Shown piece by piece: positions 6,259-46,795 of a stretch of DNA of 64,000 bases. The stretch is from Acidobacteriota bacterium (GTDB lineage Bacteria > Acidobacteriota > Vicinamibacteria > Vicinamibacterales > 2-12-FULL-66-21), in assembly GCA_031361295.1 (NCBI GenBank), contig JANMCN010000133.1:8443-72442 (forward strand), given 5' to 3'. The stretch's first letter is position 1. The number at the start of each line of letters is the position of its first letter. The position numbers were made by a program, and so were the translations under genes. The notes below the pieces were generated by a model. It was not told the DNA's origin. It saw only the letters and a program-made list of their open reading frames with translations, and searched no databases.

Positions 6259-6613
6259 GAGCCTGCCAGTCCGATTGGGCAGCCTACTCGAGGGCGTGGG
6301 CCGCCCGCTCGATGGCCGAGGCGAGACGACGTGTCTGGACGATGACTCGCGTGGAGTTCCGCACCTCGAGTGTTGACCGATCACTTCGCGCCACGTTCTC
6401 GTCCACGCCGGCGTGCGAAGTCAGAGGCCCCACGCCGCATGCGCGCGCCCGCACGGCTCAACTCGTCGAGCGTCGGGGCGGTAAGCCTGGACGAAACGCA
6501 GCGCGTGATCCCGCCGCCTGTCCGAGGCGGCTTCCGTCGGCTCGACTACGTGTGCAGGGAGAGGCGGTCGTTCTTCGATCGTGGATCCCGCGATCGGAGA
6601 GTTCTGCCGCGGG

Positions 6614-7375
6614 TCATTCAGGGCTGATGGCCAGCACGTTGAATTTCCACACCGCCGCTGCGAAGGCCAGCGGCGTCAACAGCCCCAGCCCCCATATGAC
6701 CAGCGTCAACAAGGACTGGATTCCGCTGTTCGGCGCGACGGCCGCGAGGACGGGCGCGAAGACAGCCGCGAGCGTGCCGCCGGCAATCTGGCTGAGCAGA
6801 ATCAGCTCGAGCGGGCGCTTGAGATCCGCAGGTCCATGCTGCTGCAGCTCGCGATGACTGCGCGCGAGAGACACGATGGCGGTCACGGGCAGCACGATGC
6901 CGAGCAGGACCCCCAGGGGGAATCCAAACACGATGAGCGCCAGCGTGTACGGGGTCTTCAGTCCATCGATGCTGGACGGCGCGAACCAGAGCAGGCCTGC
7001 AATCGTCAGCGGCGCGAGGCAATAGGCGACCGCCATCTGCATCCCTGACGTCTTGATCCAGGGACGCCGTCGGGGGAACACCTGTGTGAAGTGGAAGAGG
7101 AGCAGCGCCCCGACGCCCATCGCGGACGTGATGGCGGTCATGGCCTCCACGGGCAGCTTCACATGATCTGACGCGCCTCGGAGCCACCATACCGTCGGCA
7201 CGCTGAACACCACGAAATTGGCGATCGAAAACGCGAGGAAGACCCGCGTGCGGATGTCCCCGGTGGCGCGCATCCACGCAGCGGCCCCTATGGCGACATA
7301 AAAGATCGCGGCGACCGCCTGCGTGATGCCGTCGAGCGGCGTGAACTCCGGAGCGGGCATCGTCGTCAGGTCCAT
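6614..7375 (-). CDS. Multi-pass (about 7 TM) membrane protein of unknown function
   Basis: Alternating hydrophobic segments; LFHFTQVFP resembles 7TM sensor input domains. Confidence 0.75.
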   Translation of the reverse strand: MDLTTMPAPEFTPLDGITQAVAAIFYVAIGAAAWMRATGDIRTRVFLAFSIANFVVFSVPTVWWLRGASDHVKLPVEAMTAITSAMGVGALLLFHFTQVFPRRRPWIKTSGMQMAVAYCLAPLTIAGLLWFAPSSIDGLKTPYTLALIVFGFPLGVLLGIVLPVTAIVSLARSHRELQQHGPADLKRPLELILLSQIAGGTLAAVFAPVLAAVAPNSGIQSLLTLVIWGLGLLTPLAFAAAVWKFNVLAISPE

Positions 7376-7434
7376 GGGTCAGGACATTGTCGGCGCGAAC
7401 GGTCGGGACCGCAACCAGGGAGCGGAGAGCCCCG

Positions 7435-9171
7435 TCAGTTGGTCGAGGTGCCGGTCCGCCGGTAGACGATCTTGCCGTCGAAGATCGTGGCGGCGACCGT
7501 CGCGGAAGAGAGTCGGGATGGGGGCGCAGCGAAAATGTCTGTCGAGAGCACGACGAGATCGGCGAGCATCCCGCGCTTCAGAGACCCCTTCCGTTGCTCG
7601 TCGAACGAGGCGTAGGCCGGCGCGGACGTGAAGGCGTCGATGGCGCGCTTGAGCGGGAGGCTTTCGCCGCCGTTCCACGGGTCTTCGGCCCCTGCGTCGC
7701 CGGATCGGTTCACCGCGGCGTGGATGGCGGCGAGTGGATTCTGTGGGGCGTCCGGCCATCCGGTGGCGAAGGCGAGCCGGGTGTGCGCAGCGGCAAGGCC
7801 GGCGGCGGGCCATGCGCGGGCCGTGCGTTCGTCCCCCACGGCGCGCGTCCACGCGTCCACGCGGCCCGGGGAGGGCGTTGCTTCGTAAGGCCGGAGCAGC
7901 GCGATCACCCCGAGCTGCGCCAGCCTGGGGAGGTCGTCCGGATGCAGGAGCGCCAGATGTCCGATGCGGTGGCGGCGTCCACGCGCCGGTGTGGGATTCG
8001 ATCGTTCCGCGTGCTCATACGCGTTGAGCGCCATGCGGACTGCGCGATCGCCAAACGCGTCGAGGGTGACCTGCCAGCCACGTCCGTCGAGCATCCGTAC
8101 GAGCCGGTTCAACTCGTCCGGACCGATCGACGTTTCGCCGGCGCCCGTCCCGGGCCGCGCGGAATAAGGCTCGAGCAATGCCGCCTCGAAGGAATCCACG
8201 GGCCCGTCGATCACGATCCTGGCGCCTCCGACCTTGAACAGCGGATCATCAGGATATTTGCTGGAGAGCGCTTCCAGCGTGTTGAAATCCGCTGTCGTGG
8301 TCTTGTCGCTCACGCCGATCGACGAATAGACGCGCAGGTTCAGCTCCCCGGCCTGCCGCGCCTCTTCGTAGAGCGCGAAGGCGTCGGGCCCGACGGCGGC
8401 GTCCTGCACGCTCGTGACGCCGTTCTCATGCGCCGCCGCAATCGCCGTGTGGAGCGCCCGTGCGCGCTGCTCGTGGGTCGGTTTCGGGACGAGTCGTCCG
8501 GCGAGATCGGCCGCCGCCGCCGACAGCAGGCCGATCGGCTCGCCCGTCCGCTGGTCCTTCTCGATGACGCCGGCCTCCGGGTTCGGCGTGCGGCGTGTCA
8601 CACCCGCGAGCCGGAGCGCCCGCGTGTTCACCCAGGCCGTGCGTCCGTCGGCCGACAGCATATAGGCCGGACGGTCCGGGACGGCGGCATCGAGCCGTTG
8701 TCGTGTCGGAGGGCCCGTCGCCGACATCCGGCCGGACCACCCCCGCCCCACCACCCATGGGCGGAGCGGATTCGCCTCCGCCCACGCACTGATGCGCGCC
8801 TGCGCCTCATCCACGCTGTCGGCTCCGAGCAGGTCCACGCCGTCGAGTGTGAGCGCACCATCCGTGAAGTGGACGTCCGCGTCGTTGAAGCCGGGCAGGA
8901 CGGCCCCCCCGCGCGCATCGACGACGACCGTCTGCGGGCGCCGAAGGCGCTGGATCTCGCGGTCGCTGCCCACGCGCAGAATCTGGTTGCCGCGAATGGC
9001 GACGGCGTCCGCCATCTTTCCGGAACCGTCGGCCGTATAGACTTTCGCGTTGAAAACGATCAGATCGACGGGGCCGTCGCTGTCGTCGAGCTGCGCTCCG
9101 ACGATGAGGCCCGCGATGAGGGTCGCAGCGACAATCGCGACGACGACATAGGTGGTCAGGCGGGCGGCCAT
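7435..9171 (-). CDS. Amidohydrolase 3 family protein (YtcJ-like) with N-terminal membrane anchor
   Basis: VLPGFNDADVH, HRIGHL, GSLKRGMLADLVVLS; several metal-ligand positions altered. Confidence 0.85.
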   Translation of the reverse strand: MAARLTTYVVVAIVAATLIAGLIVGAQLDDSDGPVDLIVFNAKVYTADGSGKMADAVAIRGNQILRVGSDREIQRLRRPQTVVVDARGGAVLPGFNDADVHFTDGALTLDGVDLLGADSVDEAQARISAWAEANPLRPWVVGRGWSGRMSATGPPTRQRLDAAVPDRPAYMLSADGRTAWVNTRALRLAGVTRRTPNPEAGVIEKDQRTGEPIGLLSAAAADLAGRLVPKPTHEQRARALHTAIAAAHENGVTSVQDAAVGPDAFALYEEARQAGELNLRVYSSIGVSDKTTTADFNTLEALSSKYPDDPLFKVGGARIVIDGPVDSFEAALLEPYSARPGTGAGETSIGPDELNRLVRMLDGRGWQVTLDAFGDRAVRMALNAYEHAERSNPTPARGRRHRIGHLALLHPDDLPRLAQLGVIALLRPYEATPSPGRVDAWTRAVGDERTARAWPAAGLAAAHTRLAFATGWPDAPQNPLAAIHAAVNRSGDAGAEDPWNGGESLPLKRAIDAFTSAPAYASFDEQRKGSLKRGMLADLVVLSTDIFAAPPSRLSSATVAATIFDGKIVYRRTGTSTN

Positions 9172-36375: not shown

Positions 36376-37710
36376 ATGAGCACCGCTACTGAAGCACCCC
36401 CGGTCCGCCGCGCCGCCGCCGCCCCGGAGCCGCCCCCGCCGCCCGCCACGCTGGAGGCGACGGGACTCAATCCGGACACGCTGTCGCAGCTGCTCCTGAA
36501 GAGCCTCATCGCGGGAGAAGCGAGCGGCACCGGGCTGGCCGACAAGCTGCGGCTGCCGTACTCGGTGCTCGAAACCCTGGTGGAGCATGCCCGCATCGAA
36601 AAGCTGATCGAGGTGCGCGGCGCGAGCGGCACGGGTACCGCCGCGTATCGCTACGTGCTCACCGATCTCGGGCGCGACCGCGCGAACCAGTTTCTCGACA
36701 TCTGCCGGTACGTCGGGGCTGCCCCGGTCCCGCTCGCACAGTACAACGCGTACGTGCGCGCCTGCATGTCGGCCCGGCCCTACCTGGACCGGGAGCGGCT
36801 GTCGCTCGGGTTCGAACACCTCGTGGTGAACAAGGGCATGTTCGATCAGCTCGGACCGGCCGTGAACTCGGGCAAGGCGCTGTTCCTGTACGGGGCGCCG
36901 GGCAACGGCAAGACCGTCGTCGCGGAGGGAATCGGACGGGCGCTGGGCGGCGAGATGTTCATCCCGTACGCCGTGGACGTGGACGGGCAGCAGATCACGA
37001 TGTTCGATCCCGTGAACCACCAGGTGGTCACGTCGGCCGCCGAGCACCAGAGCGTCATCACGACGGCGGTTCACGATCGCCGGTGGGAGCGGATCCGCCG
37101 CCCGGTCGTCGTCGTCGGCGGCGAGCTGACGCTCGAGATGCTCGATCTCACGTTCAACCCGATCTCGAAGTTCTACGAGGCGCCGATCCAGATGAAGGCC
37201 AACGGCGGCGTCTTCGTCGTGGACGACTTCGGGCGTCAGCGCATTCCGCCCCGGGACCTGCTGAACCGCTGGATCGTGCCGCTCGAGAGCCGCGTGGACT
37301 ACCTGACGCTCCACACCGGGCGGAAGTTCGAGGTGCCCTTCAACGTCTTCATCGTGTTCGCCACGAATCTGAAGCCGGAATCGCTGGCGGACGAGGCCTT
37401 CCTGCGCCGCATCCCGTACAAGATCCTGGCGCAGAACCCCACGATTGACGAGTACTGCCGCATTTTCGAACTCAATTGCCGGCGCCGGAATCTGCCGTTC
37501 GACGCGGTGATGGTCGAGTATCTCGAGCGGACCTACTACAAGCCCCGCGGGCTGCAGATGCGTGCGTGCCATCCGCGTGACCTGCTCGACCAGGTCGTCG
37601 ATATCTGCCGGTACCAGAACCGCGAGCCCGTCATCACGCGCGAGCTGCTGGACGCGGCGTGCGGCAGCTACTTCATCGAGGAAAGCGAGTCGCAGGGAGC
37701 GGGGGCATGA
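36376..37710 (+). CDS. Tad-associated AAA+ ATPase with N-terminal winged-helix-like region
   Basis: GAPGNGKT, VDDFGRQ, LLNRWIVPLE, AFLRRI, CHPRDL. Confidence 0.85.
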   Translation: MSTATEAPPVRRAAAAPEPPPPPATLEATGLNPDTLSQLLLKSLIAGEASGTGLADKLRLPYSVLETLVEHARIEKLIEVRGASGTGTAAYRYVLTDLGRDRANQFLDICRYVGAAPVPLAQYNAYVRACMSARPYLDRERLSLGFEHLVVNKGMFDQLGPAVNSGKALFLYGAPGNGKTVVAEGIGRALGGEMFIPYAVDVDGQQITMFDPVNHQVVTSAAEHQSVITTAVHDRRWERIRRPVVVVGGELTLEMLDLTFNPISKFYEAPIQMKANGGVFVVDDFGRQRIPPRDLLNRWIVPLESRVDYLTLHTGRKFEVPFNVFIVFATNLKPESLADEAFLRRIPYKILAQNPTIDEYCRIFELNCRRRNLPFDAVMVEYLERTYYKPRGLQMRACHPRDLLDQVVDICRYQNREPVITRELLDAACGSYFIEESESQGAGA

Positions 37711-38387
37711 AGCGTGTCGAGCTCACGTTCCCGGCGACGTTTGCCGCGGCGCCGCAGGCCGCCGCCGGGCTCGGCGCCCGTGCGGACCGTCTCGCCGACA
37801 TCACGGCGCGTGCCGGCGTCATCGTGCTGTTCTCGTTCATGGCGATGCGCCTCGGTGCCGACTTCTTCGCGACCGGCCGCGTCACCGGGCTCCTGCTGCT
37901 GCTCAGCGAGCTGCTCGTCGTCGTGATGACGGTCCGGCGCCGATCGGCGGCCGCCGTCGACCGCAGCGTGCAGGCGAGGATGCTCACGCTGGCGTCGATG
38001 CTCGGTCCGCCGCTGCTTCAGCCGGCGCACGTGATGTCCCTGGCGCCGGAGTCCACGACCGTGGCGTTGTCGGTCATCGGGCTTGCGGTCGTCATCACGG
38101 GAAAGATGACGCTCGGCCGCAGTTTCGGCCTCATTCCCGCGAATCGCGGCATCGTCTCGACGGGCCTCTACCGGCTCGTCCGCCACCCGATTTACCTCGG
38201 CTATCTGCTGACGCACTTCGCGTTCCTCGCGGCGAACCCGTCGCTCTGGAACATCGGGATCCTCCTTGCGGCTGACGCCGCGCTGCTCGCCCGCGCCGTG
38301 TGCGAAGAGAAGACGCTCGCCGCCGACCCCATGTATCAGGCGTACCGGGAGTCGGTCCGATGGAGGGTGTGTCCGGGGCTCTTTTGA
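37707..38387 (+). CDS. Isoprenylcysteine carboxyl methyltransferase (ICMT/PEMT) family membrane protein
   Basis: LGRSFG, GLYRLVRHPIY, EEKTL; ATGA overlap with the ATPase gene. Confidence 0.85.
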   Translation: MKRVELTFPATFAAAPQAAAGLGARADRLADITARAGVIVLFSFMAMRLGADFFATGRVTGLLLLLSELLVVVMTVRRRSAAAVDRSVQARMLTLASMLGPPLLQPAHVMSLAPESTTVALSVIGLAVVITGKMTLGRSFGLIPANRGIVSTGLYRLVRHPIYLGYLLTHFAFLAANPSLWNIGILLAADAALLARAVCEEKTLAADPMYQAYRESVRWRVCPGLF

Positions 38388-39783: not shown

Positions 39784-41532
39784 TCACCCCGCCACGAGCA
39801 TCGGGCGCGCCGTCGTGCGCGGGAACTCCAGCACGAACGTGGTGCCCTTGCCGACTTCACTGGCGACGGTGATGGTCCCGCCGAGCTGCTCGACGATTTT
39901 CTTCGAGATGGCGAGCCCGAGCCCGAGGCCTCGCCGCTTCGTCGTGACGAAGTCCTCGAAGACTTGTGAGAGCCGCTCCGCCGGGATGCCGCAGCCGGTG
40001 TCGTAAATGCGGACCTGCACGCGGTCGGCGCGCGCCTCGGTCGCCACGACGATCAGCCCCCCGGGCGCCGTCGCCTGGATCGCGTTCAGGATCAGGTTTC
40101 GATAGACCCTCCCGAGCGCGAAGACGTCGCCTTCGATGAAGACTATCTCCGGCGTCAGCTCCGTCCGGAGCGTCAGCCCGGCGGTCTCGGCGTGCTGTTC
40201 CATGGCCTCGGCGGCATCGGCGACGGTCCGGTTCAAGTCGACCGCGAAGCGCTCGAGCGGAATCGGGCGCGCGATGTTCCGCAGGTCATCGAGCACGCGC
40301 TTGACGATGACGAGCTCGCGCTCGACTGTTTTCCTGAAGGTCTCGCGGTATTCGATATCCTCGTACATCTTCTGGATCAGCTTGCAGCTGTTGCCGATGT
40401 TCTGGATCGGATGCGAGAGATCGTGCACGAGGCCGGCGGCAATGCGCCCGAACATCGCCTGCCGTTCCTGCTTCCGGACGTTCTCCTGCAGCTCGACGAG
40501 CCGATCGGCCATGGAGTTGAACGCGTCGCCGAGCTGGCGGATCTCGTCGTGGCCGGACGGGGCGACCCGCTCGTCCATGTGGCCGTCGGCAATCGCGCGC
40601 GTCACGCGCGTGAGCGCGAAGATCCGCTGGATGAACGATCGTCCCCAGACCCACCCGAGCACCACCGTGCCGAGGATTGCCAGGGCGATGGCGGCCAGGA
40701 GCTGGCGTTCCAGGGAGTGCGCCACAGCAAAGGCATCGGTCGTCGGCTGCTCGATGAGGATCGTCCACTGGGGGTTGTCCACTGCCGCGGCGACGGCGAG
40801 GAGCGGTTCGTTCCGACGATTGGAAAACGTGGCGGAATCGGTCGAAGAGGCATGCACCCGGACCGACTCCGCAAGCTTCCGTTCGTCGGGCGCGGCGCTG
40901 GCGCCGGTCGCGATTAGTTCCTTGTCATTCGGGTTTCCGTGCGCGATGAATTTCCCCTGCTGGTCGACGAGCAGCGCATACCCCGCGGTGCCGACCCTGA
41001 TCCTGTCAACCGTGCGCCACAGCTCCTCCAGGGAGATCTCGGCGACGATCCACCCGGCATCGTCGAGGGGCACGGCAATCGTCGTGGTCGGCAGTGCGTC
41101 TGCGTCCATGTGCGGCGTGGCCACGTAGAATGCGTCTTCCTTCGCATTCCGGCTGCGCCAGCCCTCGGGCACGGACAATGAGGTCTGGCCGACGCGGCTG
41201 GTCACCCGAACACGCCCGGAACCGTCGAACACAGAAATTTCGCGGAACTCTCTGAAATCGAGTACGTGGTTGCGAAGAATGCGCTCCTGCTGCCACAGTC
41301 CGAGTTGCGTGTTCTGGAGCTCGGCGCCAATCGAGGTCAGCACGCGGACGTTGTTATCGAAGTAGAGCTTCACCCTGCCGGCGACCTGCTCCGCCACCGC
41401 CTGGTTCCCGAGCGTGACGGACTTTTCAGTTCCCGTCCTCAACGATTCGACGGACCAGATGCCATACCCGATCAGCGGCAGAACCGCGGCCGTGGCGATG
41501 AGCAGGACGAAGCGGGAGGTGATCCCCCTCAT
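39784..41532 (-). CDS. Sensor histidine kinase (TM, Cache-like periplasmic domain, TM, HAMP, HisKA, HATPase)
   Basis: H-box VHDLSHPI, N-box NLILNAIQA, DTGCGI, FVTTK, GLGLGL; ATGA overlap with the upstream SBP gene. Confidence 0.93.
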   Translation of the reverse strand: MRGITSRFVLLIATAAVLPLIGYGIWSVESLRTGTEKSVTLGNQAVAEQVAGRVKLYFDNNVRVLTSIGAELQNTQLGLWQQERILRNHVLDFREFREISVFDGSGRVRVTSRVGQTSLSVPEGWRSRNAKEDAFYVATPHMDADALPTTTIAVPLDDAGWIVAEISLEELWRTVDRIRVGTAGYALLVDQQGKFIAHGNPNDKELIATGASAAPDERKLAESVRVHASSTDSATFSNRRNEPLLAVAAAVDNPQWTILIEQPTTDAFAVAHSLERQLLAAIALAILGTVVLGWVWGRSFIQRIFALTRVTRAIADGHMDERVAPSGHDEIRQLGDAFNSMADRLVELQENVRKQERQAMFGRIAAGLVHDLSHPIQNIGNSCKLIQKMYEDIEYRETFRKTVERELVIVKRVLDDLRNIARPIPLERFAVDLNRTVADAAEAMEQHAETAGLTLRTELTPEIVFIEGDVFALGRVYRNLILNAIQATAPGGLIVVATEARADRVQVRIYDTGCGIPAERLSQVFEDFVTTKRRGLGLGLAISKKIVEQLGGTITVASEVGKGTTFVLEFPRTTARPMLVAG

Positions 41533-43070
41533 CGGCGAGCGACCTGGGCCACAGCCCGCCAGCGCCACAGGTTGGTAAACACCTCGGGATCCGAGCGATC
41601 GCCGACGTCAAAGCGGGAATCGACCGCGCGGCTGTTCTGAATCCACGCGAGGAAGACCGCGGGCGCGTCCTCGTAGAACTGGCCGCGCAGATCCCCCACG
41701 GCCGCCCTCATCTCGGGCTCCGCTCGTGCGTGGCGCAGCTGCTCGAGCGCACGATCCACTCCTGAGTAGCCGGAATCCAGTAACTCGGGGCGTTGACCCC
41801 GCGCCGGCGAATGCCAGAACCGGTACACCCAGTCGAAGGACCGGCCGCTCGTCATCTGGTAGACGTAGGTGTCGAAGTCTCCGGCGGAGGCCCGTGCCTG
41901 CAGCTCTGTTTCGCGGGCGCCAGTCAGCGCCAGATCCACCCCGACTGCCGCGAGCTGACGCTGCAGCAGCAGCGCGATCCGCTCGAACTGTGGATCCTCA
42001 TCCCAGAACAGGCACCTGATTCGGAACCGGCTGGCCATGTCGCCCGGATTCCTCCCCGCGCGCACTGGGAGACCAGCCGCCTCGAGTCTCAGACGCGCCG
42101 CACCCGGGTTGTAGCTGTGGCGCCGCGCGGCGGCGTTGTAGGCCCAGTGCGACGGCCATACGGGATCGTCCGCGACCTGTCCTTTGCCGCCCATGGCCTG
42201 GCTCACGATTTCGTCTCGGTTGATCGCTTCGGACAGCGCACGTCGGACTTCGATCTGCCTCAGAATCGGATGACGCAGGTTGAAGACGAGCGGGATGTAG
42301 AAGGGCCGAAGAGAGGAGTAGACGGAGATCCGCGTGGCGCCTTCGAGGAATTCAACAGAGTCCCTGTTGGCCTCCTGCACCATGTCGACTTCACCGCGCA
42401 TCAAGGCCGCCCAGGCGACGCGCTGCGTTTCGAACGTTCGCACCTCCACGCGGCCGATCCCGGGGCTGCCCCGGTAGTAGCTGGGGAACCTGACCGCTTC
42501 GAGAACAGGCTTCTGTTTGAGGATCCTGAAGGGGCCGGTGCCCACATTCGGCTTGCGCTGGTCGACAATCAGCGTACCCGCGATGATTTCGATCAGGAAG
42601 GCGTCAGGCCTCGTCAGATGAAACACGACGGACTGATCGTCGGGAGACTCGACGTGGTCGACTGCTTCGAAGCCGCTCGTCCGCAGTTGCTGCCCGATGA
42701 TTGCCGCGGCTACCGCGCCCGTGAGCGGGGTGCCGTCGTGAAACATCACGCCGCGACGAAGCGTGAGGCGCAAGGTGAGGCCGTCCGCATCCCAGGCCCA
42801 CGACGTCGCGAGGCGCTCGACGGCTCTGCCCTGAGGATCGAGGGCAATCAACGGCTCCGCGAACAGCGACTCACGAAGTACCTTCGGGGTTTCACCAGTG
42901 CCGCGTGCCCCTATCCGCAGACTGTTGGCCAGTGCTGGTGCGGTCGCACCGCGCCTGCATCCGGCCGCGCTCGAGAGAATGATCAGGACGGCGAGCACGC
43001 AGATACCCAACGGCGGGCATCCTGACTGCCGAGTCACCCGCGACCGACGTGCCGCTGCCGCTCTGTGCAT
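41529..43070 (-). CDS. Family 5 (OppA/DppA-like) solute-binding lipoprotein, no adjacent permease
   Basis: Lipobox-like AAGC; LRRGVMFHDGTPLT, GTGPF, FNLRHP...VRRALSEAINR; start uncertain. Confidence 0.9.
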   Translation of the reverse strand: MHRAAAARRSRVTRQSGCPPLGICVLAVLIILSSAAGCRRGATAPALANSLRIGARGTGETPKVLRESLFAEPLIALDPQGRAVERLATSWAWDADGLTLRLTLRRGVMFHDGTPLTGAVAAAIIGQQLRTSGFEAVDHVESPDDQSVVFHLTRPDAFLIEIIAGTLIVDQRKPNVGTGPFRILKQKPVLEAVRFPSYYRGSPGIGRVEVRTFETQRVAWAALMRGEVDMVQEANRDSVEFLEGATRISVYSSLRPFYIPLVFNLRHPILRQIEVRRALSEAINRDEIVSQAMGGKGQVADDPVWPSHWAYNAAARRHSYNPGAARLRLEAAGLPVRAGRNPGDMASRFRIRCLFWDEDPQFERIALLLQRQLAAVGVDLALTGARETELQARASAGDFDTYVYQMTSGRSFDWVYRFWHSPARGQRPELLDSGYSGVDRALEQLRHARAEPEMRAAVGDLRGQFYEDAPAVFLAWIQNSRAVDSRFDVGDRSDPEVFTNLWRWRAVAQVARR

Positions 43071-43190
43071 GGAGTGGGGGGCCGCCGGGACCCCGCAAGG
43101 CGGGTAGCCTTGCCAGTCCCCTGATCTGCGACGTCCCCTATAGTATCGGCCTTCTCATGCCAAAGAGAGAGACCGATCCGAGAGACCCGG

Positions 43191-43286
43191 CTACTTGCGC
43201 GGCTCGGGCATCTGTTCGACGACCCACGCGCAGCCGCTGTGGGGCAGGGGCTTCTTGTCGGCCTTCTTCACGATCTGGATTTTCAT
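43191..43286 (-). CDS. Putative RiPP precursor peptide C (31 aa) MKIQIVKKADKKPLPHSGCAWVVEQMPEPRK
   Basis: RBS AAAGGA; 29/31 aa identical to peptide B; downstream of the rSAM/SPASM gene. Confidence 0.88.
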   Translation of the reverse strand: MKIQIVKKADKKPLPHSGCAWVVEQMPEPRK

Positions 43287-43326
43287 GGTGCTTATCCTTT
43301 GATTTCAGGGTTGTTCGAGTGAGTCG

Positions 43327-43422
43327 CTACGCCCGGGGCTCGGGCATCTGCTCGACGACCCATGCGCAACCGCTGTTGGGCAGGGGCTTCTTGTCGGCTT
43401 TCTTGACGATCTGGATTTTCAT
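43327..43422 (-). CDS. Putative RiPP precursor peptide B (31 aa) MKIQIVKKADKKPLPNSGCAWVVEQMPEPRA
   Basis: RBS AGAGGA; paralog of peptide C; true start lies inside the track ORF 43327..43539. Confidence 0.88.
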   Translation of the reverse strand: MKIQIVKKADKKPLPNSGCAWVVEQMPEPRA

Positions 43423-43468
43423 GCTGGGGTCCTCTAAAGAAAATTGACGTTGCCGCGCCGTGACGCTG

Positions 43469-43555
43469 TTACCGCAGGTGCTCGACGGCCACATCGATGA
43501 GCCAGGGCCGCAGCGGGACTTTCTTCTTGTCCGTTTCATTCCTGTCGTTTTTCAT
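43469..43555 (-). CDS. Putative divergent peptide A (28 aa) MKNDRNETDKKKVPLRPWLIDVAVEHLR
   Basis: Strong RBS AAAAGGAGAG; starts 31 bp after the rSAM stop; shares DKK..P..W-hydrophobic-hydrophobic-acid pattern with B/C. Confidence 0.7.
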   Translation of the reverse strand: MKNDRNETDKKKVPLRPWLIDVAVEHLR

Positions 43556-43586
43556 GACCGCTCTCCTTTTGCCTTTCACCAAAGCG

Positions 43587-45020
43587 CTAGTTGACCGAGC
43601 CGACGCCGATCCCCGCGGCATCGCGCGCGAGTGAGACGACGCCGGCCTCGAAGCTGCTCTTGTGGCAGTTCGGCCGGCTCATGTTCCCGAGCTCCGTGTG
43701 GGCCGCGACGGAGCAGCCGCCCGCGCAGACCGGGATGAAGGCGCAGTCGTCGCACTCCTTCCACGCAGCCAGCTGGTCGAATCGGGACGCGGCGCGCTGG
43801 CGCCACTCGTCCTGCCGACCGTCGATGTGCCCCGTGGACTGCGAGGCGTCCCCCGTGAAGCCCGGGCAGGCGTACATCGCGCCGTCCGGACCGATGGTGT
43901 GGGCGTGCGCCCGGTGAATCTCGCAGGGCCCCATGTGCACGCCGTCCATCGTCGCGAATCCACGCTTCTTCGTCTCTTCGCGCAGGTATGACATCTTCTC
44001 GTCGAGGAAGTTGCAGGTATCGCAGACGCTCGAGCCGCTCGTGCCGCTTCCCGCGGACGTCATGCACGTGCCGTTCAGCGGCTTGGTCCCCGCCCCGACC
44101 AGCGTCAGCGGAATCAGCCCCTTCCGCTGCTCCGGCTTGGGCTCGCGGATCACCGGCTTGAAGGCGACGCGCGCGATCTTGTCCGAAAACTCCTGTTCCT
44201 TGAGGAAGTCGAGCAGCGCCGGGTAGCTGTCGACCGAGCTCTCGTCGAAATTGCCCCCAATCGAGATGCGGCACTTGCCCGCCACGGCCCGCACGTTCTG
44301 GATGATCTTGTCGAACGTGCCCTGGCCTCCGCGGAGCGGGCGCATGCGGTTGTGCGTGTCGTGATCGCCGTCGAGCGTGATTTTCACCGCGTTCAGGCCG
44401 CACGGCGCGAGCCGATCGACCACCTCCGGCGTGAGCAGCAAGCCGTTCGTGATGACGTTGAGCTGCATCCGGACCCCCCTCGCCTGCGAGGCCGCCCACA
44501 GCCGCTCCGAGAGGTAGTACGCGACCGGCAGGTTCAGGAGCGGCTCGCCGCCGAACAGCGTGAGCACGAAGCTCCCTGGCTTGAGCGTGTCGAGCTGTCC
44601 CTCGGTGAACGCCGCCACGCGGTCCGCGGTCTCCATCGTCATCTTCGCGGCGAACTTGTTGTAGTCGCCGTGGTCACCCTGGAAGCAGTAGTCGCACGCG
44701 AAATTGCACTGCAGGGTCGTGAGGACCGTGACGCGGAGCTGGTCGGCGCTCTGCCGCAGGTCGCGGAACCATTGCTCGATGTGCAGGCGCTCGGCCTCGC
44801 GGTTGTCGACGATGAACCCGTGGTCTGACAGGGTGGAGAGCGCCGTCCGTTCGGCCGGGTTGAGCGCCCCGGTGTCAGCCGTCCCTACGCGGTCGAGCAG
44901 CGCCGCGACGTCACGCGACACGATCAGCTGGGCATCCGTGAACGTGTTCATCAGGAACACGTCGTCGTGCCGGCCAGCCGTGTCGAGCGGGACGCGGACG
45001 TTGAACATCGAGGGCTGCAT
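43587..45020 (-). CDS. Radical SAM/SPASM peptide maturase with N-terminal RRE-like domain
   Basis: CNFACDYC; FGGEPLL; SPASM cysteines GPC...YAC...CDDC-x5-C-x3-C...C; N-terminal VFLMNTFT...LSDHGFIV; RBS GGGAGAG before ATG 45020. Confidence 0.93.
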   Translation of the reverse strand: MQPSMFNVRVPLDTAGRHDDVFLMNTFTDAQLIVSRDVAALLDRVGTADTGALNPAERTALSTLSDHGFIVDNREAERLHIEQWFRDLRQSADQLRVTVLTTLQCNFACDYCFQGDHGDYNKFAAKMTMETADRVAAFTEGQLDTLKPGSFVLTLFGGEPLLNLPVAYYLSERLWAASQARGVRMQLNVITNGLLLTPEVVDRLAPCGLNAVKITLDGDHDTHNRMRPLRGGQGTFDKIIQNVRAVAGKCRISIGGNFDESSVDSYPALLDFLKEQEFSDKIARVAFKPVIREPKPEQRKGLIPLTLVGAGTKPLNGTCMTSAGSGTSGSSVCDTCNFLDEKMSYLREETKKRGFATMDGVHMGPCEIHRAHAHTIGPDGAMYACPGFTGDASQSTGHIDGRQDEWRQRAASRFDQLAAWKECDDCAFIPVCAGGCSVAAHTELGNMSRPNCHKSSFEAGVVSLARDAAGIGVGSVN

Positions 45021-45112
45021 TCGCTCTCCCTGGTCCCGAACAGAAAATCTGGAACCGATGTGGGAGTGGCGCCTCCGGCGCGCTCGAGCCGCCACTCCAG
45101 AAGTGGTAAAAG

Positions 45113-45129
45113 TGCAACGCATATTCCGG
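45113..45129 (-). promoter_or_regulatory. Sigma-54 (-24/-12) promoter for the rSAM-peptide operon
   Basis: Minus strand CCGGAATATGCGTTGCA: GG-N10-GC with TTGCA; adjacent to a sigma-54 activator gene. Confidence 0.68.
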
Positions 45130-45272
45130 CAGACCGCTGGTGTCCAAAGAGTCGCTTCGCCAGGAGAGTCATGGCCACGACACCCATAAATACAGATGTG
45201 TTCACCTGACTCTATATGACGTCGGATGGTGCGCGGATACGGCGCACGATGCCGGGTAGAACTGACTCGATC

Positions 45273-45288
45273 GGCCAATCCATTGGCC
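45273..45288. promoter_or_regulatory. Palindrome, candidate upstream activator site
   Basis: GGCCAAT-CC-ATTGGCC about 145-160 bp upstream of the -24 element. Confidence 0.45.
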
Positions 45289-45409
45289 TGTGGGGACAAA
45301 CGGTTGCCCGACGTTTTCGTTTGGGACGCGCGGCGGGTCTACGGACGGAGGGAGCCAGGATGGACGGTCGCGTCGGGATGGGGAGTGATGAGCAGTCGGG
45401 CCGGGAGAC

Positions 45410-46795
45410 TCAGGCTCCGCGCAGCTTCCGGGCGATGTCCCGCAGATCGAGGCGGGCCATCTTGAATTTGAGGGTGCTGAGGGGGATCCCGAGATACCGC
45501 GCGGTGGCGGTGACGTTCCAGTCGGACTTCTCGAGCGCCCGCAGGATGAAATTGCGTTCGAAGGTATCGCAGGCCTCCTGGAACAGGGCTTCGCCGGTGG
45601 TCGACCCGGAGTCGAGCTTGGCGAAGTGGTACTCGAGCGGCAGATCCTCGTCGGTGATCCACTCCTTGTCGGTGACCGCGACGAGTCGCTCGATGAGATT
45701 TTCGAGCTCGCGGATGTTGCCGGGCCACCAGTATGAGGCGAGAATCTTGAGAGCGGTGCCGGAGATGCCCCGCACCGGCTTGCGGAATTTCGTCTTGTAC
45801 CGATCGAGGAAGAGGCGCGCCAGCTCGGGAAGATCCTCGATGCGCTCGCGCAGCGGCGGCATCCGGATCGGGATGACGTTGATGCGATAGAACAGGTCCT
45901 CCCGGAACCGCCCCTCCTTCACGGCCTTCTCCAGGTCCACGTTCGTCGCGACGACGAGCCGGAAACTCGTCCGGATCGGCTTCGTCCCTCCGACCCGTTC
46001 GATCTCCCCTTCCTGGATCGCGCGCAGCAGCTTGGCCTGGAGGTCGAAACGGAGGTCGCCGATTTCGTCGAGGAAGAGCGTGCCTCCCGAGGCGAGCTCG
46101 AATTTGCCGAGCTGCTGTTTGTGCGCGCCCGTGAACGAACCCCGTTCGTGCCCGAAGAGCGTGCTCTCCACCAGTTCGTGCGGAATGGCGGACAGGTTGA
46201 CGGCGATGAACGGGGTCGATCCCCGGCCCGAGGTCCGGTGGAGGAGGCGCGCGAGCAGTTCCTTGCCGGTCCCGCTCTCGCCCAGGATGAGGACCGTGGC
46301 GGAGAGCTTGGCCACCTTCTGGACGAGCTCGACGATGTCGCGGATCTGCCGGCTCGGGCCGATCAGGAACTCCCGCTCGCTCTGCTCCGCCACCTGCGCG
46401 CTGAGCGTGATGACCTGGCGGTTCAGGTCCTGGCGTTCGCAGGCGTTCCGGACCATCGAGCGCAGCTCGTCGTACTCGAAATTCTTGGTGATGTAGTGGT
46501 AGGCGCCGTGCTTCATCGCCTGGACCGCGGTCTCGACCTCGTTGATCGCCGAGATCATGATGCACTCGATGAGGCTGTAGTTCTCCTTGACGATCCGCAG
46601 CACGTCGAAGCCGCTGATCCCGGGCAGCCGGACGTCCAGCAGGATGAGATCCACGTCCTCCTGCTTCAGCAGCATCAGGGCGGCTTCGCCGCTCGCCACC
46701 ATGAGGACGCGGTAGTCCCGCTTGAGGATGGCGCCGATGGTGTCGCGCATCCCCTGATCGTCGTCGCAAATCAGGATGGTCTTGGAGCTCGCCAT
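45410..46795 (-). CDS. Sigma-54-dependent response regulator (NtrC/AtoC family)
   Basis: Receiver (CDDD, LLDVRLP), GESGTGKE, GSFTGA, FLDEIG, WPGNIREL, Fis-type HTH. Confidence 0.95.
   Translation of the reverse strand: MASSKTILICDDDQGMRDTIGAILKRDYRVLMVASGEAALMLLKQEDVDLILLDVRLPGISGFDVLRIVKENYSLIECIMISAINEVETAVQAMKHGAYHYITKNFEYDELRSMVRNACERQDLNRQVITLSAQVAEQSEREFLIGPSRQIRDIVELVQKVAKLSATVLILGESGTGKELLARLLHRTSGRGSTPFIAVNLSAIPHELVESTLFGHERGSFTGAHKQQLGKFELASGGTLFLDEIGDLRFDLQAKLLRAIQEGEIERVGGTKPIRTSFRLVVATNVDLEKAVKEGRFREDLFYRINVIPIRMPPLRERIEDLPELARLFLDRYKTKFRKPVRGISGTALKILASYWWPGNIRELENLIERLVAVTDKEWITDEDLPLEYHFAKLDSGSTTGEALFQEACDTFERNFILRALEKSDWNVTATARYLGIPLSTLKFKMARLDLRDIARKLRGA

Follow-up and report, generated by a model that had tools for sequence, protein, structure and literature searches.

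Comparative analysis of a sigma-54-linked radical SAM peptide cassette in Vicinamibacterales and its possible role in autoinduction

Does a ribosomally made and enzymatically modified peptide act, in a diderm soil bacterium, as the signal for its own production? This question is raised by a gene cassette in a 64,000-nt stretch of contig JANMCN010000133.1 (assembly GCA_031361295.1; hereafter the window, whose positions number all features) from a member of the order Vicinamibacterales (Acidobacteriota). The cassette reads on the minus strand from 46795 to 39784 and consists of a gene for an NtrC-type activator, a palindrome, a -24/-12 promoter and then one operon, which encodes a radical S-adenosylmethionine (rSAM)/SPASM maturase, the small peptide pepA, copies of the small peptide pepB, a lipoprotein solute-binding protein (SBP) and a sensor histidine kinase. 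An earlier note on this DNA had proposed that the modified peptide leaves the cytoplasm, binds the SBP and signals through kinase and activator to make more peptide. Comparison of related loci gave good support to the wiring of such a circuit, in that the peptide, maturase and sensor genes all stand behind a predicted regulated promoter, an arrangement that fits positive feedback. The identity of the SBP's ligand, on which autoinduction depends, is held here more tentatively.

All eight elements listed in the earlier note were found on the minus strand at the positions collected in Table 1, with a single correction to the start of the kinase gene (ATG 41532), and the order claimed for them recurred at every related locus with sufficient flanking sequence. 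The comparison covered 121 genomes of the Vicinamibacterales, 401 genomes of the phylum and 80 related loci for genomic context, which was scanned within the Acidobacteriota. Around the maturase homologues of the order, the activator gene lay upstream at 74/74 loci with sufficient flank, and the genes for pepB (75/75), the SBP (67/67) and the kinase (65/65, of which 62 had more than 50% coverage in one match) were equally constant downstream. Inside the operon, a scan for sigma-70 promoters and terminators found nothing significant. The three small open reading frames (ORFs) have ribosome sites of AGGAG, GAGGA and AAGGA type, and the 125-nt spacer 3' of pepB2 was unremarkable in RNA folding (z = -1.96).

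A maturase orthologue was detected in 57 of the 121 genomes of the order and was nearly all-or-none by family: every genome had it in six families (9/9, 9/9, 9/9, 9/9, 7/7, 4/4) and none did in five others (0/9 each). In family f4 the cassette was missing from all nine genomes, at least four of which are single-contig, so cultured strains may be without it. In the phylum sample it was limited to the Vicinamibacterales, with relatives outside the order only 28-35% identical (24-29% by tblastn); at 15 outside-order loci, tblastn with the window's proteins matched the maturase alone, within about 1.5 kb of flank, and a second lineage for testing the association did not turn up. Among protein relatives of the maturase, the best 120 (72-100% identity) were almost all metagenomic. 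One locus labelled Bifidobacteriaceae (L068) had the full Vicinamibacterales-type cassette and its neighbours, and this bin label is probably wrong.

The results supported the sigma-54 promoter that the earlier note had read before the maturase gene. In the window, the spacer between activator and maturase genes measures 389 nt and contains the -24/-12 element CCGGAATATGCGTTGCA; such an element recurred in 69 of the 71 regions between activator and maturase genes, 27-146 nt upstream of the maturase start codon; L015 and L083 had other best sites. Its consensus is YGGAAY/TGGCAC-N5-GTTGCW, nearing TGGCAC-N5-TTGC in more distant loci, and the genome encodes rpoN (sigma-54), scoring above cut-off. 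Additionally, a palindrome, GGCCAA-N4-TTGGCC, occurred upstream of the promoter in 70 of the 71 regions with no more than two substitutions, and in 49 of them exactly. Its distances to the -24 position fell, in 64 of 70 cases, into six narrow bins near 159, 171, 180, 191, 204 and 214 nt, which span 157-217 nt and stand about 10-12 nt apart. This spacing is read as helical phasing, of the sort that a looping enhancer would show, with distances that are common by descent among related loci and for which no statistic is given. A second conserved inverted repeat lies between palindrome and promoter and overlaps a terminator-like hairpin (45208-45193) after the activator gene. Downstream of the activator at 12/12 loci without the cassette, the palindrome was not found.

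Table 1 Elements of the cassette, numbered by their positions in the 64,000-nt window
Feature	Positions	Strand	Basis of assignment
NtrC-family sigma-54 activator, 461 aa	45410..46795	-	Pfam: Response_reg + Sigma54_activat + AAA_lid_14 + HTH_8
Palindrome GGCCAATGGATTGGCC, candidate enhancer (upstream activating sequence, UAS) for the activator	45273..45288		conservation in intergenic regions
Second conserved inverted repeat ATAGAGTC ... GACTCTTT	45146..45215		MAFFT consensus of 69 upstream regions
Predicted sigma-54 -24/-12 promoter element CCGGAATATGCGTTGCA, GG-N10-GC	45113..45129	-	read from sequence
Radical SAM/SPASM-type peptide maturase, 477 aa	43587..45020	-	PF04055
pepA, 28 aa	43469..43555	-	51 orthologues, codon-position entropy
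pepB copy 1 (pepB1), 31 aa, candidate precursor	43327..43422	-	conserved M1, K2, C19
pepB copy 2 (pepB2), 31 aa	43191..43286	-	near-copy of pepB1
Lipoprotein SBP, family 5 (cluster C fold), 513 aa	41529..43070	-	SBP_bac_5, Pfam
Sensor histidine kinase (dCache_1, HAMP, HATPase_c), about 582 aa from ATG 41532	39784..41532	-	Pfam, NCBIfam

The genomes that carry the activator without the cassette were the most informative about the partner of the kinase. An activator orthologue (60-70% identical) was found in 86 of the 121 genomes, namely 56 of the 57 with a maturase and 30 of the 64 without. At 12/12 loci with an activator and no maturase, the maturase, peptides, SBP and kinase were all missing as one block; Lpd (or E2), activator and HU remained neighbours at 12/12, and QueF followed HU at 11/12 (no match in L120). 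Five of five cassette-less genomes had no orthologue of the kinase, the best matches covering the catalytic core only (32-36% identity), and none of the SBP (best matches 27-32% or nothing). The block is absent as a unit and the activator is retained, so the four cassette functions travel together and the activator does not travel with them. At one of these loci, L121, the cassette's usual place between activator and HU is taken by a 597-aa gene (6436-8229) that is unrelated and reads on the other strand.

The activator has a receiver with D54, an AAA+ domain with a GSFTGA loop and GESGTGKE, and a Fis-type helix-turn-helix domain, which place it in the NtrC family; its best NCBIfam match is AtoC, below cut-off. 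The earlier note had taken the kinase and the activator, which bracket the peptide genes, for a split cognate pair, and the receiver residues argue that it was right. D11, D12, D13, D54, S82 and K104 were invariant in 69/69 activators from cassette-bearing loci. In the 12 cassette-less activators, D12 was kept in 3, D54 in 9 (otherwise G, N or A), S82 in 8 and K104 in 11; all six residues were intact in only 2/12 and the receiver was decayed in 10/12, with the rest of the protein still 63-70% identical. Since the receiver pocket decays exactly where the kinase is gone, there is strong comparative evidence that the kinase is the cognate partner of this activator, and its transmitter, which is nearest AtoS/ZraS in NCBIfam, is consistent with pairing to an AtoC-like regulator. 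The decay further points to loss of the cassette and not to its gain. In a quick, midpoint-rooted tree of the activator, which alone does not prove the direction of change, the cassette-less rows fell into two groups nested among cassette-bearing rows, giving at least two changes.

We then consider the input side of the kinase. The likely start codon of the kinase, ATG at 41532, overlaps the SBP stop codon, as the earlier note had read from the ATGA, and an in-frame A/G/TTGA overlap was kept in 37 of 40 loci. The SBP belongs to family 5 (SBP_bac_5, 192.9 bits), and its lipobox Cys38 was invariant in 52/52 orthologues. An AlphaFold2 model (pLDDT 91) showed a two-lobe fold with TM-scores of 0.64-0.78 to cluster C structures, the nearest being NikZ, AppA, AgaA, NikA and DppA. 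These fold neighbours bind nickel complexes, peptides and opines, one of them a signal molecule, and at 17-20% identity for all of them no ligand can be read off for the SBP. The evolutionary rate of the SBP was correlated with that of the kinase sensor domain (partial correlation r = 0.83, p = 0.00015, n = 15 independent pairs) and not significantly with that of the cytoplasmic part (0.22, independent pairs). Because the translational coupling is conserved and the rates covary with the sensor but not with the cytoplasmic part, the comparison supports the SBP as functional partner and putative periplasmic co-sensor of the kinase. The earlier note had called this SBP an orphan, which is true only locally: the cassette has no permease gene, but a paralogous SBP with permeases is encoded on another contig.

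Among 11 close pairs, dN/dS was 0.20 for the SBP and 0.21 for the sensor domain, compared to 0.05-0.11 for the other genes; dS was near saturation, so that positive selection on either cannot be claimed. In the same number of close pairs, four-fold synonymous differences at conserved residues were also higher in the SBP (median 0.615) and the sensor domain (0.55; 40660-43070 for both, with orthologues) than in five further genes, or parts of genes, of the locus (0.44-0.48), an excess that hints at old or exchanged alleles.

The exact palindrome occurred only twice in the window's genome (G000). The second copy lies on contig C280 (25000-29775; L127, L143), between divergent genes for a subtilase (Peptidase_S8) and a second SBP_bac_5 protein (SBP2), and a sigma-54-like site, TGGCACTACCTGTGCC, stands about 45 nt before the subtilase start codon. 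SBP2 is followed by permease genes (one in G000, two in the genome G404), and genes nearby encode a further subtilase, a GNAT protein and a DHDPS-family protein in G000 and an M1 peptidase in G404. The same subtilase-SBP2 layout, with one or two palindromes and a TGGCAC-N5-(G/T)TGCC-type site facing the subtilase, was present at 7/7 loci; three of these belong to cassette-less genomes and the other four, G000 among them, to genomes with the cassette. In 11 activator-bearing genomes, 4 of the 17 exact palindromes were at the cassette, 8 at the subtilase-SBP2 locus and 5 elsewhere; a reversed-pattern control gave 14 matches, and thus the placement of the palindrome is enriched and its total is not. 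Five genomes of the order without the activator had the palindrome 0 times (control 6), and one of the five had a relative of SBP2, at 34% identity. One-mismatch palindromes were near sigma-54-like sites in 7 of 15 cases, compared to 9 of 26 in the reversed-genome control, which limits any claim of a regulon to the two exact sites. In the genome G403, the subtilase-SBP2 intergenic region is mirrored on contigs C4 and C5 (L129, L132), as a duplicate or an assembly artefact.

Because palindrome and sigma-54 promoter are common to the cassette and the subtilase locus, the relay probably controls extracellular proteolysis too. We infer that the activator binds the palindrome and controls both loci, and control of the subtilase locus would explain why the activator is kept where the cassette is gone. 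On this presumed binding site, which also precedes the subtilase and peptide-uptake genes, the output of the circuit is wider than the additional peptide that the earlier note had envisaged.

The conservation of the three small ORFs indicates that they are genes. We surveyed pepB at the 80 related loci, of which 72 yielded it by pattern, three (L041, L051 and the frameshifted L045) by eye, and five had no flank; it was thus present at 75/75 loci with sufficient sequence after the maturase, in 1-4 copies per locus. Its form is an MKI(Q/T)(I/V)(I/V)KK start, about ten variable residues, C19, Pro/Ala, an aromatic residue, two hydrophobic residues, Asp/Glu and a variable tail, with the acidic residue at +5 from Cys19 (spacing C-x4-D/E); M1, K2 and C19 were invariant in 52/52. 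In the window, pepB1 has a leader-like MKIQIVKK start, the variable stretch and a C19-A/P-W/F/Y-x-(V/I)-(D/E) core, and differs from pepB2 by 7 synonymous and 2 non-synonymous codons. pepA was found at 51 loci including the window, with its stop position fixed in 47 of the 51 and entropies of 0.56/0.25/1.15 at the three codon positions, a coding-type pattern with most variation at third positions. Its N-terminus is rich in Lys, and its conserved block at the C-terminus reads LRPWL(V/I)DVxV(D/E)xLR. None of pepA, pepB1 and pepB2 had an NCBIfam match at E<=1, and language-model look-alikes of pepB fell into unnamed clusters of 55, 955 and 73 members. In other Acidobacteriota, the five outside-order loci that were scanned had enzymes of the same broad maturase superfamily. 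Among 15 loci listed for precursors, the distant TIGR04463-like maturases L101 and L111 are followed by Cys-rich precursors that begin with or contain MKIV(V/A). Since both carry it, an MKIV-type leader may be common to the whole superfamily.

Some cassettes look damaged or misassembled. Besides the frameshifted pepB of L045, the maturase gene is split in two frames in three genomes (G399, with L097/L113; G457; G435), has one in-frame TAG in G469, and gave partial matches in G466, G427 and G461. We could not tell whether these are pseudogenes or long-read assembly errors.

pepA and pepB have in common a P-W-hydrophobic-hydrophobic-Asp block, in which pepA has Arg for the Cys of pepB, and pepA lacks the MKI start. 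This block could be a common recognition element and would fit a further explanation, in which the modified peptides have the co-regulated subtilase as their target or work in the periplasm, for example as inhibitor, chaperone-like partner or processing substrate; the SBP would then hold or present them and not report cell density, and the kinase would report the state of the protease-peptide system. The palindrome and sigma-54 promoter common to cassette and subtilase gene would suit such a role. However, the subtilase locus with its palindrome is kept in cassette-less genomes and therefore does not need these peptides, and we consider this explanation improbable.

The maturase falls within the radical SAM superfamily by its PF04055 match (61.5 bits, cut-off 29.5) and its C105-x3-C109-x2-C112 cluster motif, which was invariant in 13/13 aligned relatives. 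The SPASM pattern runs C-x9-15-G-x4-C, a gap, C-x2-C-x5-C-x3-C, a further gap and C. A seven-Cys pattern of this type is present as C366-x13-G380-x4-C385, C423-x2-C426-x5-C432-x3-C436 and C452, and all its Cys residues were invariant in the 13 relatives; the C-terminal 171 aa had no Pfam match at E<=10. Residues 1-95, where the RRE named in the earlier note (the recognition element of RiPPs, peptides made by the ribosome and modified after translation) would lie, gave no PqqD match, and the CefB model aligns to the maturase from residue 4. Leader and N-terminal domain covaried in a Mantel test (r = 0.26), but not over independent pairs (r = -0.03). An AlphaFold2 model built from 13 close relatives (pLDDT 47) was too poor for a fold search.

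By NCBIfam, the best match of the maturase was the geopeptide maturase family TIGR04280 (259.7 bits, E 5.1e-77), followed by CefB, TIGR04463, FlmE/OhkG, Clo7bot and PapB (117 bits), all under their cut-offs. The relation to geopeptide maturases suggested in the earlier note thus stands in that TIGR04280 is the nearest family and fails as membership, since 259.7 bits lies under the cut-off of 400 that NCBI's rule sets. These families share with the cassette a radical SAM core, the SPASM-type Cys pattern and a short adjacent precursor, but pepB has a single Cys, unlike its C-rich relatives with many. The nearest solved relative by sequence (3.6e-16) was PDB entry 5wgg, which we take to be CteB. 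The thioether-forming SCIFF/ranthipeptide maturases are thus similar through CteB as nearest solved sequence and through the match to PapB, and the precursor here has its invariant Cys and acidic residue at +5; the differences are low identity, scores under the family cut-offs and the C-x4-D/E spacing.

Most of the maturase's named NCBIfam relatives, judged by their names, act on Cys-containing peptides, and PapB joins Cys to the side-chain carbons of Asp or Glu. Since pepB has one invariant Cys, followed at +5 by an invariant acidic residue, the best guess for its modification is a single thioether ring, at roughly even chances. An aromatic cross-link instead is possible, because Cys-less pepA has the shared motif and because WprB, according to the excerpt available of its description, is a radical SAM enzyme that makes a Trp-Arg link on WPR motifs (PMC11851443). 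The R-P-W of pepA, which stands where pepB has C-P-W, may be compared with the WPR motif of that excerpt.

Taken together, the proposed circuit would run as follows. The NtrC-family activator would bind GGCCAA-N4-TTGGCC about 160 nt upstream of the -24/-12 promoter and turn on a single operon for the maturase, pepA, pepB copies, lipoprotein SBP and Cache kinase; the same relay would also drive the subtilase gene beside the peptide ABC-uptake operon on the other contig. The maturase would make one cross-link in pepB, at the Cys19-Pro/Ala-aromatic...Asp/Glu core, most likely a thioether of the ranthipeptide kind, and the modified peptide would reach the periplasm or the outside. There the SBP, as periplasmic co-sensor, would bind the modified peptide and switch the kinase, whose phosphorelay partner would be this activator, closing a positive loop as in quorum sensing.

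To what extent the peptide can be regarded as the ligand was judged from rates, covariation and gene content. The SBP (mean p-distance 0.62), the kinase sensor domain (0.53) and the peptide (0.55) evolved fastest within the system, compared to 0.15-0.28 for the cytoplasmic parts (activator 0.15; cytoplasmic part of the kinase 0.26). The cassette SBP was 33-39% identical between genomes in which the transport paralogue SBP2 was 49-55% identical (3/3 genomes). Wherever a locus held both halves, the sensor pair never occurred without the maturase and peptides, nor the reverse. A precedent for a kinase gated by a cluster C SBP exists in CBP-ChiS (PMC8449061; PMC12704726). A complex prediction of mature SBP with pepB (alignments of 52 rows each) scored 0.24 against a mark of 0.32 and is evidence neither way.

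Several observations weigh against the peptide as signal. The cassette has no exporter or leader peptidase gene, no Peptidase_C39 domain was found in the 98.9% complete genome, and the peptides are without a signal sequence. The partial Mantel correlation of the core with the SBP (r = 0.39, 31 loci) vanished over 25 independent pairs (r = -0.03); the variable stretch was correlated with the SBP (r = 0.43, p = 0.03), but the negative control, the cytoplasmic part of the kinase, was correlated with the variable stretch at r = 0.62. When nearest neighbours were compared, pepB went with that of the SBP in 11 cases and with the baseline one in 8, the other 2 being ties. A dCache domain can by itself bind small ligands, and faster change is common among periplasmic proteins. 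Additionally, Lpd, HU and QueF were equally collinear across the 80 loci, so that synteny within the order is weak evidence alone; the joint loss of four genes needs just two deletion events on the activator tree, and a single deletion takes out an entire operon, regardless of how its parts function. Finally, the activator persists without the cassette and must therefore have a role that does not need the peptide.

Alternatively, the relay may sense an outside cue other than its own peptide, such as oligopeptides from proteolysis or another ligand of the SBP or Cache domain. Subtilase and peptide uptake would then be induced, the modified peptide would be a further output (an antimicrobial, protease modulator or intracellular factor), and the sensor would be autoregulated merely because it sits in the induced operon. 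The missing exporter and peptidase, the lack of robust SBP-peptide co-evolution, the nickel complexes, peptides and opines bound by the nearest SBP structures, and the persistence of the activator all fit this explanation, as does a presumed regulon of subtilase and peptide uptake. The latter resembles substrate induction in the CBP-ChiS system of Vibrio, in which, according to the excerpts available, a cluster C binding protein gates a membrane kinase for polymer-degradation enzymes and product uptake (PMC8449061; PMC12704726). However, one would expect conservation in a sensor for a common nutrient, whereas the SBP is the fastest gene of the locus and outpaces SBP2 in the same genomes; the strict joint occurrence of sensor pair, maturase and peptides speaks against it as well, and the lineages that lost the cassette lost the sensor too, though they kept protease locus and activator. 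We give an outside cue a substantial chance, well short of even. Autoinduction, with the modified peptide as the SBP ligand that closes the positive loop, is in our estimate just below an even prospect. The wider proposal is plausible and somewhat doubtful; in it, a diderm soil bacterium would have a true autoinducer in the form of a peptide cross-linked by an rSAM enzyme, which a lipoprotein family-5 SBP would read to gate a Cache kinase, and which would govern both its own operon and a public-good subtilase and uptake locus.

The cassette has partial counterparts among known signalling systems. In LuxP-LuxQ-LuxO and AioX-AioS-AioR, a periplasmic binding protein reports its ligand to a membrane kinase that controls an NtrC-family sigma-54 activator, which is the relay of the cassette; unlike the proposed signal, their ligands (furanosyl borate and arsenite) are not ribosomal peptides, the binding proteins are of other SBP classes, and the signal synthesis genes lie outside the sensor operon. 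Nisin (NisRK) and agr are autoinduced modified peptides with two-component sensors in Gram-positive bacteria and resemble the proposed loop in that a modified ribosomal peptide is encoded with its two-component sensor in a positive loop. Similarly, the operons of streptococcal radical SAM peptides are tied to quorum-sensing signalling, as far as the source excerpts go. These Gram-positive systems differ in that the kinase binds the peptide directly or Rgg senses another peptide, with dedicated exporters or processing enzymes; unlike the cassette, they are not known to use an SBP, a sigma-54 activator or a diderm envelope. CBP-ChiS differs, in the excerpts cited above, in its chitin oligosaccharide ligand, in that ChiS binds DNA itself and CBP feeds a transporter, and in having no peptide maturase. 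The cassette belongs to none of these systems. A literature search (geopeptide; SBP with kinase and radical SAM RiPP; sigma-54 quorum sensing; Acidobacteria ranthipeptide), which left supplements uncovered, found no paper on the system; for ranthipeptides in Acidobacteria this was judged from the titles and abstracts of the matches listed. The locus was not mentioned in the available excerpts of literature on Vicinamibacter radical SAM gene clusters, including PMC8692599, and among the matches listed for Acidobacteriota with quorum sensing and radical SAM precursor peptides, none mentioned Acidobacteriota.

Elsewhere in the window, at 36376-38387, a gene for an AAA-type ATPase (444 aa, no Pfam match) is followed by one for an ICMT/PEMT-like methyltransferase. 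The two genes are conserved as a pair in several relatives from the order, among them 4 of the 12 loci without the cassette (L116, L119, L121 and L126).

What is new here, as read from the compared loci, is the presence or absence of the block from rSAM gene to kinase gene as a unit, the decay of the receiver where the cassette is missing, and the recurrence of palindrome and promoter at the subtilase gene. The Vicinamibacterales are widespread in soil and represented by few cultures, and to our knowledge nothing is known of their signalling. Even without the ligand step, the system offers a natural experiment on a response regulator after kinase loss, a defined enhancer and promoter pair, and two families of unstudied precursors for radical SAM chemistry. 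Should the SBP have the peptide as its ligand, the cassette would represent a new build of peptide autoinducer system, in which the signal is a radical SAM product, the receptor an SBP and the output sigma-54-dependent. Such a system would lie in a diderm phylum and, through its tie to the breakdown of extracellular protein, bear on soil nitrogen turnover. The SBP, sensor domain and peptide, which change fast, would in that case serve as lineage-specific 'dialects', and signal-blind variants would have their counterpart in loss of the cassette with decay of the receiver.

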